A stretch of DNA of 57,518 nucleotides, from IMG/VR virus record IMGVR_UViG_2861048470_000006; one strand, 5' to 3'. Position 1 is the stretch's first letter. Each line of letters starts with the position of its first letter. Positions 2,077-52,118 of this stretch are shown in pieces. The notes beneath the pieces are model-generated. The model was not told the DNA's origin. It ran no database searches and was given only the letters and a program-made list of their open reading frames with translations. Origin of the DNA: a virus (taxonomy: Duplodnaviria > Heunggongvirae > Uroviricota > Caudoviricetes). The translations under genes and the position numbers were made by a program.

Positions 2077-4041
2077 TCACCCGACCCGCACAAATAATCC
2101 TATATACGCTTCCTTTCCGTTGGTGGTATAAAGACCATCTCCCCCCAGAGACTGATACACTCCGGGAAATGCCGATGTATTCGTTCTGCCAATGACAAAC
2201 GTTGCCTCCCCTTTCATTGTGCCTGCTCCTGTCACGCCTCCCACTACTATTTCCACCGGCGCAAGTGCTTTTCCCGGGCATGGTTGTCCACGACTCAGGC
2301 GCATTAAAACTCCACCTTCCGCTACTCCCAAAAAAGCTGCCATAACCACACTGCCGATATCCGGTTTCGGCGAACTGATACTTCTTAAAAATTCATCCTT
2401 TGATAATTTGCTCTGAGCCTCATCCATTACCACTTTGACCGCTTTTGGGGTTGCCGCCAGTGACTCGGAAGTGCTGTTTGTCGCACTACTGAGTTGTACT
2501 ATCCCTTTCTGTGCTGTCGTTGCATTCTGTGCGGTGTATTTCCCGTTAGCCAGGTCATACGCGGCCTTAACTGCTTTTGGCGTTGCCGCCAGTGACTCGG
2601 AAGTACTGTTTGTCGCACTGCTGAGTTGTACTATCCCCTTTTTCGTCGTGCTCGCATCCTCAAGCGCCACGGCGTATGCAATATCCTCTGCCCGTTTTGC
2701 TGCTGTCTCGGCGCGCGTTGCTGCGGATTCTGCCGTACTCTTGCTCTGTGCTGCCGCCGTCGCACTACCAGCTGCCTCGGTCGCTTTCGTGGATGCCGTC
2801 GTGGCACTTCCCTTCGCTGCTGACGCCTGTTTAGTCGCCTCATCTTTTGAAGCAGACGCAGATGATGCCGATGACGCCGCCGAACTGGCGGACGATGCGG
2901 CAGCCGTTTTTGAGGATTCTGCGCTGGTTTCCGACGCTTTCGCGTTCGTTTCGGATGTCTTCGCTGCGGAAGCAGACCTCGCTGCTGCGCTGGCCTGTTC
3001 AGCGGCTTCGCCAGCCTTCGTTGTGGCTGTTGAAGCAGACGATGCGGCACTTTCTGCCGATTTTCCGGCGGCGGTGGCACTGGCTGAGGCCTGCCCGGCA
3101 CTTGTTGACGCGGCACTGGCAGACGACGCAGCCGCTGTTTTTGAGCCTGCCGCAGCTGAGGCGCTCTGTCCCGCTGCCGTCTCAGAAGACTTAGCGTTCG
3201 TCTCGGACGTTTTTGCCGCCTTCGCGGAATTTCCTGCCGCCGTTGCCGAGGAAGCGGCACTACTGGCGCTCGAGGATGCGTTCGTTTCTGATGATTTCGC
3301 TGCCTCTTTTGAGGCCGCCGCATCCCGGGCTGAGGTGGCAGCTTCTGAGGCTTTCGTAGTCGCGGTGGATGCAGAAGTGGCTGCTGATTGTTGTGACGCT
3401 GCGGCATTCGTTTCTGACGTTTTCGCCGCACCGGCACTGGTGGCCGCCGCGCTTTTTGAGGACTCTGCAGCGGCAGCACTTTTTGATGCCTCAGAGGCTT
3501 TTGCTGATGCCGTTCCCGCGCTGGAAAAAGCCTCCTGAGCCGACGTCGCGGCCTGTCCGGCTGACGTGCTGGCGGCACGAGCTGAGCCTGCAGCATCAGT
3601 CGCATGGGTTGCCGCCTCACGGGCTGATGTGCTGGCATCGCTGGCTGACTTCTTCGCGGCTGCCGTGTTCTGTGCCACCGCGGACGCGTTACGCGCCACC
3701 TCTTCCACCATCAGTTCAAAACGGCGCAGTGCCTCAGGACGGGCATCATCCTCCGTCATGGCACCGAGAAAATCATTCAGCGTACCGGGTCGGGAATCTT
3801 CATACACGGTGATGGTCCCGGCATGTGACGGCGGGAATCCCTCCACCAACAGAATAACGCTGTACTGCCCGTACTCAACGTCCATGCTGTAACGCCCGGC
3901 TTCATCCGGATTTTCTGAGGCCAGCGTGTTCACCACCACCGTGGTGCTGTTACGTTTTGCTTTCAGCTGGATTGTGCAGTTCTGTACCGGTTTTCCTGTG
4001 CCGTCTTTCAGTACACCTGAAATCTTTACTGCCATATTCAC
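2077..4041 (-). CDS. stf: side tail fibre protein (Stf); lambda-like N-terminus (MAVKISGVLKDG...), long Ala/Ser/Thr-rich low-complexity shaft; true start probably the ATG 2 codons in (4035)
   Basis: 654-aa ORF; N-terminal match to lambda Stf as recalled; position between lom and tfa. Confidence 0.85.
   Translation of the reverse strand: MNMAVKISGVLKDGTGKPVQNCTIQLKAKRNSTTVVVNTLASENPDEAGRYSMDVEYGQYSVILLVEGFPPSHAGTITVYEDSRPGTLNDFLGAMTEDDARPEALRRFELMVEEVARNASAVAQNTAAAKKSASDASTSAREAATHATDAAGSARAASTSAGQAATSAQEAFSSAGTASAKASEASKSAAAAESSKSAAATSAGAAKTSETNAAASQQSAATSASTATTKASEAATSARDAAASKEAAKSSETNASSSASSAASSATAAGNSAKAAKTSETNAKSSETAAGQSASAAAGSKTAAASSASAASTSAGQASASATAAGKSAESAASSASTATTKAGEAAEQASAAARSASAAKTSETNAKASETSAESSKTAAASSASSAASSASSASASKDEATKQASAAKGSATTASTKATEAAGSATAAAQSKSTAESAATRAETAAKRAEDIAYAVALEDASTTKKGIVQLSSATNSTSESLAATPKAVKAAYDLANGKYTAQNATTAQKGIVQLSSATNSTSESLAATPKAVKVVMDEAQSKLSKDEFLRSISSPKPDIGSVVMAAFLGVAEGGVLMRLSRGQPCPGKALAPVEIVVGGVTGAGTMKGEATFVIGRTNTSAFPGVYQSLGGDGLYTTNGKEAYIGLFVRVG
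2441..2640 (-). repeat. two ~70-bp near-identical direct repeats inside stf, encoding the duplicated peptide KGIVQLSSATNSTSESLAATPKAVK
   Basis: gcttttgg(g/c)gttgccgccagtgactcggaagt(g/a)ctgtttgtcgcact(a/g)ctgagttgtactatccc occurs twice about 120 bp apart; coordinates approximate. Confidence 0.6.
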
Positions 4042-45624: not shown

Positions 45625-46491
45625 ATGAAGTATGTCTTTATTGAAAAACATCAGGCTGAGTTCAGCATCAAAGCAATGTGCCGCGTGCTCCGGGTGGCCC
45701 GCAGCGGCTGGTATACGTGGTGTCAGCGGCGGACAAGGATAAGCACGCGTCAGCAGTTCCGCCAACACTGCGACAGCGTTGTCCTCGCGGCTTTTACCCG
45801 GTCAAAACAGCGTTACGGTGCCCCACGCCTGACGGATGAACTGCGTGCTCAGGGTTACCCCTTTAACGTAAAAACCGTGGCGGCAAGCCTGCGCCGTCAG
45901 GGACTGAGGGCAAAGGCCTCCCGGAAGTTCAGCCCGGTCAGCTACCGCGCACACGGCCTGCCTGTGTCAGAAAATCTGTTGGAGCAGGATTTTTACGCCA
46001 GTGGCCCGAACCAGAAGTGGGCAGGAGACATCACGTACTTACGTACAGATGAAGGCTGGCTGTATCTGGCAGTGGTCATTGACCTGTGGTCACGTGCCGT
46101 TATTGGCTGGTCAATGTCGCCACGCATGACGGCGCAACTGGCCTGCGATGCCCTGCAGATGGCGCTGTGGCGGCGTAAGAGGCCCCGGAACGTTATCGTT
46201 CACACGGACCGTGGAGGCCAGTACTGTTCAGCAGATTATCAGGCGCAACTGAAGCGGCATAATCTGCGTGGAAGTATGAGCGCAAAAGGTTGCTGCTACG
46301 ATAATGCCTGCGTGGAAAGCTTCTTTCATTCGCTGAAAGTGGAATGTATCCATGGAGAACACTTTATCAGCCGGGAAATAATGCGGGCAACGGTGTTTAA
46401 TTATATCGAATGTGATTACAATCGGTGGCGGCGGCACAGTTGGTGTGGCGGCCTCAGTCCGGAACAATTTGAAAACAAGAACCTCGCTTAG
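45625..46491 (+). CDS. insF: IS3 transposase OrfB (DDE integrase-like catalytic domain)
   Basis: 288-aa ORF; normally expressed as OrfAB fusion by -1 frameshift. Confidence 0.9.
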
Positions 46492-46770: not shown

Positions 46771-48974
<2,204 letters not shown>

Positions 48975-49014
48975 AAGCCCTCCTGAAAATTACCTCATGA
49001 CCAGAAATTAACAC

Positions 49015-50091
49015 TTACCCCCTGAAGCCCGGCGGAATTTCGTTATCCGGTTCAGAAATATGATTCACACAACGCTGGTTGTTCGTGCCGCTTACCGGGA
49101 GCAACCAGGGGTTCTCAAAATTCCGGTCCGGTCCAAAAAACGTCGTCGCTCGCTGAACAAATTCCGTTCCCGTTTTCCCGGTAGCCGCCAAGTATCTTGC
49201 GTAACGCCTCACGCCATCCAGCATGGCCTCTGGTGGCACCCCCTCGCGTAATCTGGCCTTCCAGGCACTGAAAGCGGATTTCTTCGGGTTTGCCCCAGCA
49301 CGCAACGGGTACTCCCGCCAGACCTGTTCGAACACATCCGGATAATCCACTCGTCCCACAGACTGCCCGGTGTTTTCCGGGACTACCCGATCGGCTTCCC
49401 GCTGAATGGCGGAATCGGCTTCAGGCTGCTGCAGTTGGTGTGATTGCTCCGCCCTTGCGGTCATCACCTGCTGCACAGCGCCCGAATCGGCTTTCAGCGC
49501 ATACGCTGAATCGGCTTCCGGTGTCGTGCCTGCTGGCTGACCAAGATTGACGGTCTGAACATCCCCTGCCTGGTTCGTGGCGTTTTTTACGCCATGGACC
49601 ATAGTGTTTTGATCTTCTTGATCTGTATCTTTATCTGTATCTTTATCTGTCGTGACTCGTCGTGACATGTGCGTGACATTTCGTGACGCGCCGTGACAAT
49701 TGCCATTTTGTTCCCGCTTTCTTTCCCTCTCTCGCTGCGCCCTCTTGCGCTCTGCAGGAGATTTTGCGGTTTGCGAAATATTGCCGTTGTCCTCTTTAAG
49801 CACCTGGCGTTTTTCCCATCCAGTGATTAAATCACCATCAAGTACCCGCCCCTGCATCGTCTGCAAAATTGAATCAATTACCTCTTCTGTCACGTCGAGC
49901 GCACTTGCCAAATCTTCTGTCGTGACATCAATGTGACCTCGCGTGACATTTCGTGACGCGCTCACCAGGAGGTGGATATACACTGCCATCACTGTTGCAA
50001 TTGGCTGCCCTGACACCCTGGCAATTGTTCGCCACTTAGGGTCATTTGGCATGTCATGCCATAATCTGAGCCAAGCGTTAGCCATACTCAC
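49015..50091 (-). CDS. phage replication initiator / replisome organiser with DnaT-like C-terminus; contains in-gene iterons
   Basis: 358-aa ORF; C-terminal VNHISEPDNEIPPGFRG resembles the DnaT C-terminus as recalled; CGTGAC iteron arrays inside. Confidence 0.65.
   Translation of the reverse strand: MSMANAWLRLWHDMPNDPKWRTIARVSGQPIATVMAVYIHLLVSASRNVTRGHIDVTTEDLASALDVTEEVIDSILQTMQGRVLDGDLITGWEKRQVLKEDNGNISQTAKSPAERKRAQRERERKREQNGNCHGASRNVTHMSRRVTTDKDTDKDTDQEDQNTMVHGVKNATNQAGDVQTVNLGQPAGTTPEADSAYALKADSGAVQQVMTARAEQSHQLQQPEADSAIQREADRVVPENTGQSVGRVDYPDVFEQVWREYPLRAGANPKKSAFSAWKARLREGVPPEAMLDGVRRYARYLAATGKTGTEFVQRATTFFGPDRNFENPWLLPVSGTNNQRCVNHISEPDNEIPPGFRG
49621..49697. repeat. iteron array: tandem ATCTGTATCTTT x2.5 followed by five CGTGAC repeats at ~10-11-bp spacing (candidate origin)
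   Basis: cgtgac at about 49651, 49661, 49672, 49682, 49692; coordinates +/-2. Confidence 0.6.
49887..49957. repeat. second iteron cluster: (C/T)GTGAC x4 direct plus one inverted copy
   Basis: gtcacg at ~49890 then cgtgac/tgtgac at ~49921, 49933, 49942, 49952. Confidence 0.5.
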
Positions 50092-50156
50092 CTCTTCTGA
50101 TACCGAATCTTTTTACTCACGAGTTGCCGGAAGCGATTCGATATGGCTATTGTCAG

Positions 50157-50582
50157 TCAATGTACTGCCACAGCATTTCCTGCCGGGCCACCACGGTTCA
50201 TCTGATTGAAACCGGCGATTGCCACTGCGACAAAATCATCAGCGTCTCTCACCAGTCGCTCCCGCGTCTCCACCAGCTCCCGAAAATAAGCTGAACTGTG
50301 GCTGCGCATTCTGGCCACCAGCAAAGGTGGCATTGCCTTTTCGATCGCTGGTAACAACGCCTGAATTTTTTCAACTGCATCAGGGGTGTCTTTCTCTACC
50401 CAGCGGAAAATTTTCTGGGTATTGCGAGCCAGGGCTTCCGGATGGCTGTCGTCATACAGTTCCGGGAACGTCATTCCCAGCTCGAAATACGCTTTGGTAA
50501 TTTTCGCAGCCGGTACTTTTTCGCCGTCCGGATGCGCCCAGGCATTCATCGCCATGCGGATGTGTTCATGCTTGATTTTCAT
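50157..50582 (-). CDS. hypothetical early-region protein (CII/YdaT-position)
   Basis: 141-aa ORF directly downstream of cro-like gene with 4-nt overlap; no motif recognised. Confidence 0.35.
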   Translation of the reverse strand: MKIKHEHIRMAMNAWAHPDGEKVPAAKITKAYFELGMTFPELYDDSHPEALARNTQKIFRWVEKDTPDAVEKIQALLPAIEKAMPPLLVARMRSHSSAYFRELVETRERLVRDADDFVAVAIAGFNQMNRGGPAGNAVAVH

Positions 50583-50794
50583 GAATCATTCTTTCCTTCG
50601 TTCGAGGTGCTATCCTGCTTCTTGTAAAGTTCTGGGTTGTATTTCAATTCACCGTTAGTAATTTCATCCAGTTCCATTGCGCGAAGTTTGGGAATAACTG
50701 CTTTCCACCGCACAACAGCCACATGTGAAATTCCAAGAGCCTCAGCTACTAGTCGCTTTTTTTTGAAATAGCGCAGAACATCATCTTTGAACAT
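50579..50794 (-). CDS. Cro-like HTH regulator
   Basis: 71-aa ORF divergent from cI-like gene; HTH segment LVAEALGISHVAVVRWK. Confidence 0.6.
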   Translation of the reverse strand: MFKDDVLRYFKKKRLVAEALGISHVAVVRWKAVIPKLRAMELDEITNGELKYNPELYKKQDSTSNEGKNDS

Positions 50795-50823
50795 AAAACT
50801 CTCCTGTTATTTCGAGCAGGATG

Positions 50824-50885
50824 GTAACAATAGTTACATAGCAATGTCAACCATAGCAACATCACTTGGTAGTAACATTGGTTAC
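50824..50885. promoter_or_regulatory. two operator-like 14-bp sites GTAAC-N4-GTTAC in the cro/cI divergent intergenic region
   Basis: GTAACaataGTTAC (50824-50837) and GTAACattgGTTAC (50872-50885), the latter abutting the cI ATG. Confidence 0.45.
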
Positions 50886-51560
50886 ATGAAAAACACTATC
50901 AGCGAACGTATTCGGAATCGTCGAAAAGACGTTGGATTAACCCAACAGCAGGTTGCGAAAGCAATCGGCATATCTCGTGTATCCGTAACAAAATGGGAAA
51001 ATGGCTCTTCAAAACCTGACGGTGAGAATTTGCATCTACTGTCAAAATTGCTTTCCAAATCTCCTGAATGGATTCTTTATGGAAAGGACGGTCACGATAA
51101 AACCGATGATCTGCGTCTGAATCAGTATCCTTACATTAGTGACAACATCGCCCGGTTGCCCGTTTTAACGTGGGAACAGGCTGGTTATTGGGATATGAGT
51201 TGTCCAGTAACCGAGATTCCTGGCATTAAGAATTGGGTTGATGTCATGACAAAAACCGCTGAAAACTCTTTTTTATTGCATGTTGAGGGAGATGCGATGA
51301 CAAACTCTAACGGCCTCCCAACCATCCCCGATGGATCTACCGTGCTGATCACACCATGCTCAAGTAACATTAGAGAACTGGTGGGAAAAATAATCTTAAT
51401 CCAATTGGAAGGAACGCCAAACGTAACACTAAAAAAAGTTGCGATTGACGGACCAAACATCTATCTGTTGTCACTGAATCCGCTTTACAAACCCATCGAA
51501 CTGAATGGTGGTTACACCATTAAAGGTAAAGTTTCACAAATACATCAATACTTAGACTGA
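50886..51560 (+). CDS. CI-like repressor (N-terminal XRE HTH, C-terminal S24 LexA-like peptidase)
   Basis: start at MKNTISERIRN... (ATG 50886); HTH LTQQQVAKAIGISRVSVTKWE; C-terminal S24-like region. Confidence 0.8.
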   Translation: MKNTISERIRNRRKDVGLTQQQVAKAIGISRVSVTKWENGSSKPDGENLHLLSKLLSKSPEWILYGKDGHDKTDDLRLNQYPYISDNIARLPVLTWEQAGYWDMSCPVTEIPGIKNWVDVMTKTAENSFLLHVEGDAMTNSNGLPTIPDGSTVLITPCSSNIRELVGKIILIQLEGTPNVTLKKVAIDGPNIYLLSLNPLYKPIELNGGYTIKGKVSQIHQYLD

Positions 51561-51832
51561 GTCAGAACCCGCATTCATTGCGGGTTTTTCACGCTCTCAA
51601 ATGTACCTTTTGCAACATCGTATTGACTCGAAAGGTAACTCTTGTTACCTTAACGGCATACCAACCCACCCCGCCCCACAGAATGCAGGGCAATACTTCG
51701 AGTTACCAGGCAGTGGTCAGGGGTTAAGTAGCCAGCCCGAGGCGTAAGAACATGACGGCAGGGTTCAACTTTAATAACTATGCAGCAGGTTTTTGTTCCG
51801 CTACCCCGGCGTTAAGGGGAAATGAGGTCAGC

Positions 51833-51988
51833 ATGGATACTATCGATCTTGGCAACAGCGAATCTCTGGTATGTGGCGTGTTCCCCAACCAGGACGGTAC
51901 GTTCACCGCGATGACGTATACCAAAAGCAAAACGTTTAAAACCGAAAATGGTGCCCGTCGCTGGCTGGAAAGAAACTCAGGTGAGTGA
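51833..51988 (+). CDS. small protein YdfA-like
   Basis: 51-aa ORF from internal ATG with GAGG RBS; first gene of the dicB operon by position. Confidence 0.5.
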   Translation: MDTIDLGNSESLVCGVFPNQDGTFTAMTYTKSKTFKTENGARRWLERNSGE

Positions 51989-51989
51989 T

Positions 51990-52118
51990 ATGGATTTCGA
52001 CACAATCATGGAAAAGGCTTACGAAGAATACTTCGAAGGTCTTGCCGAAGGCGAAGAAGTTCTCAGCTTCAGTGAGTTTAAACAGGCGCTTTCCAGTTCG
52101 GCAAAATCTAACGGCTGA
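51990..52118 (+). CDS. small acidic protein YdfB-like (42 aa)
   Basis: hand-translated MDFDTIMEKAYEEYFEGLAEGEEVLSFSEFKQALSSSAKSNG; starts 2 nt after previous stop. Confidence 0.4.
   Translation: MDFDTIMEKAYEEYFEGLAEGEEVLSFSEFKQALSSSAKSNG

Follow-up and report, generated by a model that had tools for sequence, protein, structure and literature searches.

A probable replication origin of phased repeats inside the initiator gene of a lambdoid Escherichia coli prophage, and a DnaT-like tail on its product

At ori-lambda, the replication origin lies inside an initiator gene of the early-right operon, after the cro and cII homologues, with direct repeats in the segment that codes for a linker and an AT-rich run that follows them in the direction of the gene. 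The SPP1 origin oriL also lies inside a gene, gene 38. Here we examine an initiator gene that shares each of these ori-lambda features and belongs to IMG/VR virus record IMGVR_UViG_2861048470_000006 (Caudoviricetes), whose whole stretch of 57,518 nucleotides (nt; 57.5 kb) was analysed and is referred to as the window. The encoded protein matches PHROG 3729, 'replication initiation protein', from residue 3 to residue 358 across positions 1-356 of the 356-position profile (E = 1e-256), and, judging from two clusters of phased repeats and an adjoining AT-rich stretch, the gene very probably carries its own replication origin.

The end of this initiator resembles a part of E. coli DnaT. In the cryogenic electron microscopy (cryo-EM) structure of the PriA/PriB/DnaT preprimosome published in 2026, the DnaT C-terminal domain docks on PriA and forms a filament on single-stranded DNA (ssDNA), and the DnaT linker contacts PriB (PMC13377028); the same study states that the mode of DnaB/DnaC recruitment is still unknown (PMC13377028), and a study of 2024 notes that no direct contact of DnaC with PriA, PriB or DnaT has been demonstrated (PMC11087952). 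The C-terminal 20 residues of DnaT have been described merely as a highly flexible tail (PMC5778457). In a domesticated O-like protein, DopC, whose partner is the P-like DopE, a C-terminal domain of DnaT has been noted (Brezellec et al. 2017, PMC5509034), and no iterons were found in dopC (PMC5509034). In the literature we found no description of the origin of the initiator family studied here or of the DnaT tail as a separate motif, the note on DopC (PMC5509034) being the nearest.

Phased repeats in the initiator gene

Both clusters are built on one core, CGTGAC on the + strand and GTCAC(G) in the orientation of the gene, and were mapped by exact pattern search of the window. Cluster B comprises five copies starting at 49651, 49661, 49672, 49682 and 49692 on the + strand, that is, at spacings of 10, 11, 10 and 10 base pairs (bp), and cluster A comprises CGTGAC at 49921, 49942 and 49952 together with TGTGAC at 49932 (spacings 11, 10 and 10 bp). 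A 12-bp tandem, ATCTGTATCTTT, abuts cluster B at 49621-49650 in two full copies and one partial copy and is translated as TTDKDTDKDTDQ. An earlier note on this DNA had reported five CGTGAC repeats 10-11 bp apart, a second cluster of four (C/T)GTGAC with one inverted copy, and a tandem repeat beside the five-copy cluster that codes for a linker peptide; all of these were found where Table 1 and the starts above place them, and the exact count confirms the regularity of the spacing.

The clustering and phasing of the cores are far beyond chance. Nine of the 42 CGTGAC sites of the window are confined to 310 bp, and 500 block shuffles preserving local composition never gave more than three sites per 50 bp (observed, five) or four per 320 bp (observed, nine); the Poisson expectations across the whole window are 2e-5 for the 50-bp and 2e-7 for the 320-bp stretch. 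Exact search found no further cluster of the CGTGAC motif in the window.

When homologues were sought in one genome per species, relatives of the N-terminal domain (48-91% identity) were found at 26 loci, from Enterobacterales, Pseudomonas, Bordetella, Aquitalea, Chromobacterium, Acidovorax, Gilvimarinus, Sphingomonas and several metagenome bins. Most homologues of the GTCAC type keep the layout of four cores at gene nt ~129, 139, 149 and 160 and three to five phased cores at ~389-430, while the inverted core at gene nt ~193 is kept in 13 of the 16 other aligned GTCAC-type homologues, its GTG codon being invariant wherever the valine is retained. In a codon alignment of 17 GTCAC-type genes from Gamma- and Betaproteobacteria, the mean entropy of third codon positions within the motif is 0.04 bit (9 columns), compared with an average of 1.24 bit in the 77 other columns with conserved amino acids (Mann-Whitney p = 2e-6), and motif codons such as serine TCA, valine GTC, glycine GGT and histidine CAC are fixed. 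The nine cores are spread over all three reading frames, in which they are read as ASR, VT, GH, CH and MSR. Because the cores occur in three frames and their synonymous sites are invariant, they do not constitute a peptide repeat, and a peptide-repeat origin of the DNA repeats was rejected on these grounds.

Some homologues have exchanged the core itself. GTAACG stands in place of GTCACG in Pantoea (locus L020), Enterobacter (L024), Marinobacter (L026) and Sphingomonas (L030), and CGAACG does so in L025, L027 and L031; the replacement cores occupy both gene positions at a spacing still of 10-11 bp, and the 3' ACG is common to all three core types. That two arrays separated by 250-280 bp change in concert is as expected for sites read by a single protein. 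Copy number shifts by whole units, as in the first cluster of E. albertii (L006) and E. coli FCI23 (L003), where an additional 21 bp holding two cores is translated as a 7-residue insertion. Taken together, these comparisons indicate that selection acts on the repeats at the level of DNA and not of protein.

An AlphaFold2 model of the initiator, built from 30 sequences, places the clusters in permissive parts of the protein. The N-terminal region has helices at residues 2-11, 16-25, 29-48, 56-63 and 67-77, with block-mean predicted local distance difference test (pLDDT) values of 58-84 over residues 1-80 and a low-pLDDT loop at residues 48-52; residues 128-243 form a disordered linker, residues 245-330 are helical with pLDDT > 90, and the tail is modelled without secondary structure. 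With cluster A encoding part of an insertion-tolerant surface loop and cluster B part of the disordered linker, codons imposed by the DNA should do little harm. The loop that the iterons themselves encode is also the main systematic protein difference between the core groups. The fold weakly resembles the DnaD N- and C-terminal domains, at structural scores too low to establish homology; a Foldseek comparison of the full-length model with the PDB gave nothing below E = 2, and PDB sequence searches matched the tail only, once a spurious resemblance to a designed repeat protein is set aside.

The AT-rich run and the cassette junction

The lowest GC content of the gene (30%, 49600-49639) adjoins cluster B in the linker-coding segment. 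Across the 26 homologues, the 40 nt after cluster B have a mean AT content of 68%, against 45% for the gene, and a purine content of 74%, against 56%. The run is typically AGATAAAGATAAAGA, (AGATAA)n, occurs also in hosts with only 32-40% AT, and is read in another frame in a few homologues; like the cores, it is under selection as DNA. Being joined to cluster B in every case, even in GC-rich hosts, it bears the signature of an unwinding element and not that of an operator. The occurrence of the cores in three frames, the invariant synonymous sites, the co-variation of the cores and the conserved AT-rich run together support the proposal of the earlier note that an origin is embedded in the initiator gene. 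Its description of one-turn spacing as the classic lambdoid arrangement did not stand, as lambda-type iterons are dyad units of ~18-24 bp and the spacing here is 10-11 bp; a lambda-O-family gene among the compared loci (L004) has five iterons of its own, dyad-symmetric and 23-24 bp long.

The two-cluster, one-turn architecture recurs outside the GTCAC family in the initiator of an E. coli O157:H7 prophage (L005), which carries GAAGCCCCTT at 11-bp spacing (L005:3615-3651 and 3882-3907) in clusters 245 bp apart, and which differs from the initiator of the window in its N-terminal domain and has the C-terminal half in common with it.

Several junctions fall at the AT-rich run. Partial matches in E. 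coli genomes end at about 49610-49628, the N-terminal part of L003 (domain, both clusters and AT run) is fused to a different C-terminal half, and the C-terminal half shared with L005 is there fused to other N-terminal domains. The N-terminal and C-terminal cassettes thus recombine independently, with their junction at the run. They represent the classic lambdoid split between an origin-specific and a host- or loader-specific part. Some E. coli genomes carry alleles of the type of P0019 (302 amino acids, E. coli), in which an in-frame deletion, placed at about residues 135-215 of the initiator of the window, has taken out the greater part of cluster B together with the AT-rich run and the linker beside it; this allele may be an origin-dead prophage copy.

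Beside the run stands an imperfect palindrome (Table 1), whose role in the origin is uncertain. It scored as terminator-like on the + strand and did not exceed shuffled controls, and tests for its conservation and for an excess over shuffles found neither. Several homologues carry palindromes in the corresponding position, GC-rich and of the form CCCCC...GGGGG, and ori-lambda has a palindrome at the same relative position. Units of the AATCGGCTTC type at 49390-49521, present in four copies at spacings of 24, 72 and 24 in one common frame and read as EADS/KADS in the disordered linker, look like an indel-prone protein-level repeat and not like a binding-site array; other E. coli alleles (P0002, P0004 and P0047) carry deletions in this region. 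No DnaA box with up to one mismatch was found in 48900-50300, no RNA family of Rfam in 48000-52000, and a promoter and terminator scan stayed at background level.

The DnaT-like tail and the genes around the initiator

BLASTP of the initiator against E. coli DnaT (DnaT sequence identical to PDB 9zbt_D) aligned the last 20 residues with DnaT residues 160-179; 14 of them are identical, 18 are similar, and the pairwise E value is 3e-8. The NCBIfam DnaT equivalog aligned with residues 335-358 only (E = 7e-4, far below the cut-off), and PDB DnaT chains likewise aligned with the tail only. The N-terminal oligomerisation and PriB-binding domain of DnaT was not found in the initiator by NCBIfam, PDB chains or BLASTP, and its three-helix ssDNA-binding domain, PF17948, gave no Pfam match and no alignment outside the tail. 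The DnaT-like C-terminus of the earlier note is thus borne out for the last ~20 residues (14/20), and does not include the DNA-binding domain of DnaT.

The tail is retained in homologues only about 50% identical, and it also ends the initiators of Gifsy-1, Gifsy-2, SPN1S, Rac (YdaU), the Shigella phages POCJ13 and 75/02 Stx, and Klebsiella phages. The proteins that it ends have at least four types of N-terminal and at least three types of C-terminal domain, and belong to at least four unrelated enterobacterial phage initiator families. The last 63 nt occur at 92-97% DNA identity in otherwise unrelated initiator genes, which also have the downstream DUF977 gene in common. Conversely, the sister initiator L003 contains DnaT's C-terminal ssDNA-binding domain, at 58% identity over 73 residues, ends in ...LDCPDWRDD and is followed by a P-type loader gene. 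The Salmonella phage SPN1S initiator has both the DnaT C-terminal domain and the tail, and Serratia proteins combine the window initiator's C-terminal domain with a P-associated acidic tail, a combination which implies that tails move independently of the preceding domain. The genes for Rac YdaU and the SPN1S initiator contain no comparable phased repeat arrays, so that the architecture of the window is not universal among tail-bearing initiators. In L009, an Entomomonas metagenome-assembled genome, the same N-terminal domain and GTCAC iterons are accompanied by the end ...KFKDEDIPY, like the acidic tip of SSB (DDDIPF), which suggests that different initiators may copy the tails of different host proteins.

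A degenerate DNA pattern that stands for PD..IP.GFRG and an ensuing stop codon matched at least 120 stretches of viral contigs; all among the matches listed were initiator C-termini, with the consensus R(D/C)(V/P)N.(I/V)S.PD..IP.GFRG. Among these listed matches, the gene after 105 complete tail-bearing initiators was DnaC-like in 56, DUF977 without a loader in 35 and another gene in 9, the contig ending in the remaining 5, and it was lambda-P-like in none (0/105). Six relatives that have the window initiator's N-terminal domain and a P-like neighbour all have other tails. At individual loci, L024 has an IPxGFRG tail and a DnaC-like neighbour, L030 has a DnaC-like neighbour and a tail (…EKPAGFS) that is only loosely similar, and the tail-bearing L014 has no recognised loader, its next open reading frame looking ParB-like by eye. 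Judged by these gene neighbourhoods, the likeliest partner of the tail is a DnaC-type loader, with PriA/PriB as its main rival. The earlier note's host primosome-recruiting initiator thus survives as one of two live interpretations of this tail; the neighbourhoods point more to DnaC-type loaders. In YdaU-YdaV and in the Gifsy O-DnaC pairs (L032, L033), the tail-bearing initiator stands directly upstream of a DnaC homologue, like the chromosomal order dnaT-dnaC; this match is compatible with dnaT-dnaC being a domesticated phage module.

The note's further claim, that this is not a lambda O/P pair, is upheld by the surrounding genes: the module has no P gene, the gene after the initiator is DUF977 (also known as LygF), and intact, near-identical phages encode no loader after the initiator. 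The initiator gene occurs at about 97-99% identity in phages vB_EcoS-640R1, Tritos and Evi; in vB_EcoS-640R1 LygF and small genes come immediately after it, and none of these is a P, DnaC-like or DnaB-like gene, and intact phages whose module is 98.7% identical encode no helicase-loader gene. In the window, too, there is no loader gene between the initiator and DUF977. DUF977 was considered as a stand-in loader and rejected, since it is also present after DnaC-like genes. Intact DUF977/LygF has 140 amino acids in L001 and L002. In the window, IS100, an insertion sequence of the IS21 family (istA/istB, 46830-48631, - strand), sits in this gene, whose last ~30 codons are lost, and an IS3 transposase (45625-46491, + strand) adjoins the element; the early region of the prophage is thus disrupted, and the initiator and the predicted origin are intact.

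The early operon has the order CI(S24), Cro, CII-YdaT, initiator, DUF977, that is, a lambdoid immunity and early region, and the locus is the replication module of a lambdoid E. coli prophage. RefSeq starts the initiator at the ATG at 50085, two codons inside the GTG start, giving a product of 356 amino acids, and this is the probable start; the RefSeq record is WP_001262391.1, 'DNA-binding protein', and other NCBI labels, which are annotation only, are 'phage replisome organizer' and 'hypothetical protein'. The gene is present in 1646 of 5426 complete E. coli genomes at ≥80% coverage. Pfam searches found no family for the whole protein at E <= 0.01 and none with an alignment of the C-terminal domain; among the profiles without a match in the initiator are those of the lambda O family and, at E <= 0.01, the SPP1 G38P-type Phage_rep_org_N and DnaD domains.

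Table 1. Coordinates of the initiator gene, its repeats and domains, and its neighbours in the window
Feature	Position	Strand	Basis and remarks
Replication initiator gene	49015-50091	-	Open reading frame list; 358 amino acids, GTG start at 50091
Iteron cluster A	49921-49957	-	Four GTCAC(G/A), gene nt 129, 139, 149, 160; N-terminal-domain surface-loop codons (residues ~43-56)
Single inverted core GTCACG (+ strand)	49889-49894	-	Gene nt 193, 33 bp downstream of cluster A in gene direction
Iteron cluster B	49651-49697	-	Five GTCACG, gene nt 389, 399, 409, 420, 430; disordered inter-domain linker
AT-/purine-rich run (AGATAAAGATACAGATAAAGATACAGAT...)	49610-49650	-	Probable DNA-unwinding element; junction of N- and C-terminal cassettes
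Imperfect palindrome, 13-bp arms, 5-nt loop	49571-49601		Inverted-repeat scan; directly beside AT-rich run
N-terminal helical domain (~residues 1-90)	49816-50085	-	Probable winged-helix DNA-binding domain
C-terminal helical domain (~residues 245-330)	49096-49353	-	No Pfam family; weakly resembles DnaD C-terminal domain
C-terminal 20 residues QRCVNHISEPDNEIPPGFRG	49018-49077	-	Match DnaT tail
DUF977/LygF gene, immediately downstream of initiator	48645-48974	-	Pfam DUF977
CII/YdaT-like gene	50157-50582	-	Pfam YdaT_toxin; PHROG 163 'CII-like transcriptional activator'
Cro-like gene	50579-50794	-	Pfam P22_Cro
Divergent CI-like S24 repressor	50787-51560	+	Pfam HTH_3, Peptidase_S24

Readings of the locus and comparison with known systems

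We consider it likely that the gene combines an internal origin with an N-terminal part that binds and opens it and a C-terminal half and tail that recruit helicase loading. The winged-helix-like N-terminal domain would bind to one face of the DNA at the phased cores and form oligomers, and the bound initiator would stress and open the adjacent AGATAA run, in the manner of lambda O at ori-lambda. The second cluster, ~260 bp away, may join this complex by looping or may serve autoregulation. With less confidence, we suggest that the C-terminal half, consisting of a small DnaD-like helical domain and the flexible DnaT-like tail, could recruit the helicase-loading proteins of the host, DnaB-DnaC being the likeliest target by way of a DnaC-type loader; recruitment of the host machinery would explain how such a phage needs no loader gene of its own.

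Several points weigh against this proposal. In the literature we found no experiments that address, for this initiator family, DNA binding, the activity of the origin or the partners of the tail, and the DnaT tail itself has been given no function (PMC5778457; PMC13377028). The loader counts among the matches listed include many close relatives and are not independent, because many of the prophages are closely related. The tail is also found where the phage has a DnaC-like gene of its own, and so is not simply a substitute for a loader. Finally, the N-terminal-domain helices are nearly identical between the GTCACG, GTAACG and CGAACG groups (alignments of L006-L031).

If the phased repeats were binding sites of some other kind, such as operators for autoregulation or copy control or the sites of another protein, the origin would lie elsewhere. 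Plasmid iterons do mediate autorepression and handcuffing in addition to their other role, a protein bound at cluster A, ~130 nt into the gene, could block transcription, and there is no DnaA box nearby. We nevertheless regard this explanation as improbable, given that cluster B is invariably joined to an AT- and purine-rich run, GC-rich hosts included, that repeats followed by an AT run in the linker of an initiator mirror ori-lambda, and that the motif forms no other cluster elsewhere in the 57.5-kb window. Far less credible still is that the repeats are a by-product of protein repeats or replication slippage and the tail a functionless remnant hitch-hiking at a mosaic boundary. The peptide ASRNVT is indeed present in both clusters, and the last 63 nt (92-97% identity) and DUF977 are common to unrelated initiator genes; but the cores lie in three frames, their synonymous sites are invariant over large distances and they co-vary in both clusters, while the tail is kept at ~50% protein identity and behind different C-terminal domains, and initiator C-termini account for all the listed matches, at least 120 in number, to its pattern.

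The partner of the tail is the more contested part. The tail might recruit the restart primosome through PriA and/or PriB, in which case the initiator would act as a sequence-specific surrogate of DnaT, with PriA-dependent loading of DnaB on the opened origin. The tail is, after all, copied from DnaT, which works with PriA and PriB in the preprimosome (PMC13377028); the DnaT C-terminal domain (58% identical), which docks on PriA in the cryo-EM structure, is present in sister initiators; and SPN1S has both this domain and the tail. Yet the PriA and PriB contacts of the preprimosome come from the DnaT C-terminal domain and linker, with no role described for the tail; among the matches listed the tail accompanies DnaC-type neighbours and never P-type ones; and the DnaT-domain variants that are paired with P are without it. 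We judge recruitment through PriA or PriB to be unlikely. A more specific conjecture, which we put forward tentatively as possible but doubtful, is that the last ~20 residues of DnaT (...VSEPDxxIPPGFRG) are a portable docking peptide for DnaC-type loaders or DnaB-DnaC, used in replication restart and copied by at least four unrelated enterobacterial phage initiator families as a means of loading the host helicase at the phage origins, whether or not the phage supplies a DnaC homologue.

For replication specialists, the distribution of the tail is probably the useful part. Its presence on otherwise unrelated phage initiators, with DnaC-type and not P-type loaders among the matches listed, singles out a specific 20-residue candidate, a hint of the way in which the host helicase-loading machinery is engaged by such phages and perhaps by DnaT, and it bears on the open question of how PriA/PriB/DnaT recruits DnaB-DnaC (PMC13377028). 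If the tail is indeed a docking peptide, this prophage module would point directly to the missing preprimosome contact that recruits DnaB-DnaC. The initiator family, present in about 30% of complete E. coli genomes, with an N-terminal domain found across Proteobacteria, has no Pfam model. Comparison defines a compact cassette, composed of a DNA-binding domain, two phased iteron clusters and a putative unwinding element, which could help to tell replication-competent prophages from others and possibly to foresee mutual incompatibility.

The systems considered here each share a part of this arrangement. E. coli DnaT is 70% identical to the initiator over its last 20 residues, including the terminal SEPDxxIPPGFRG, but the initiator is without the oligomerisation/PriB-binding and ssDNA-binding domains and is a predicted sequence-specific origin binder, not a restart factor. 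The sister initiators annotated as 'DnaT-like ssDNA-binding domain-containing' (L003, L006) have the same N-terminal domain and GTCAC iterons; they differ in having the DnaT C-terminal domain and no tail, an acidic end of the LDxxDW type and a P-type loader as the next gene. DopC resembles these sisters as an O-like initiator that borrows part of DnaT (PMC5509034). The initiators of Rac (YdaU-YdaV), Gifsy-1/2 (O-DnaC) and SPN1S have the same tail and the same place in the early operon but other N-terminal domains; Rac and Gifsy also have other C-terminal domains and a DnaC-like gene of their own, and the genes of Rac and SPN1S are without comparable phased repeat arrays. SPP1 G38P and firmicute DnaD share the NCBI name 'phage replisome organizer' and a weak DnaD-like fold resemblance, whereas neither a Phage_rep_org_N nor a DnaD profile matches the initiator and the structural scores are too low for homology. 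With ori-lambda, beyond the placement of repeats and AT-rich run described at the outset, the locus has in common independently recombining cassettes, the N-terminal one origin-specific and the C-terminal one loader-related. In contrast to lambda, the initiator has no sequence relation to lambda O (no Pfam match), the module lacks the P gene of the lambda O/P pair, and there are two clusters ~260 bp apart, one of them within codons of the DNA-binding domain. The units of 10-11 bp with an asymmetric 6-bp core, in place of the ~18-24 bp dyad-symmetric iterons of lambda type (compare L004), make this a variant of the lambdoid arrangement. The kind of element, a lambdoid origin inside an initiator gene, is thus already known; the variant is undescribed and very widespread.

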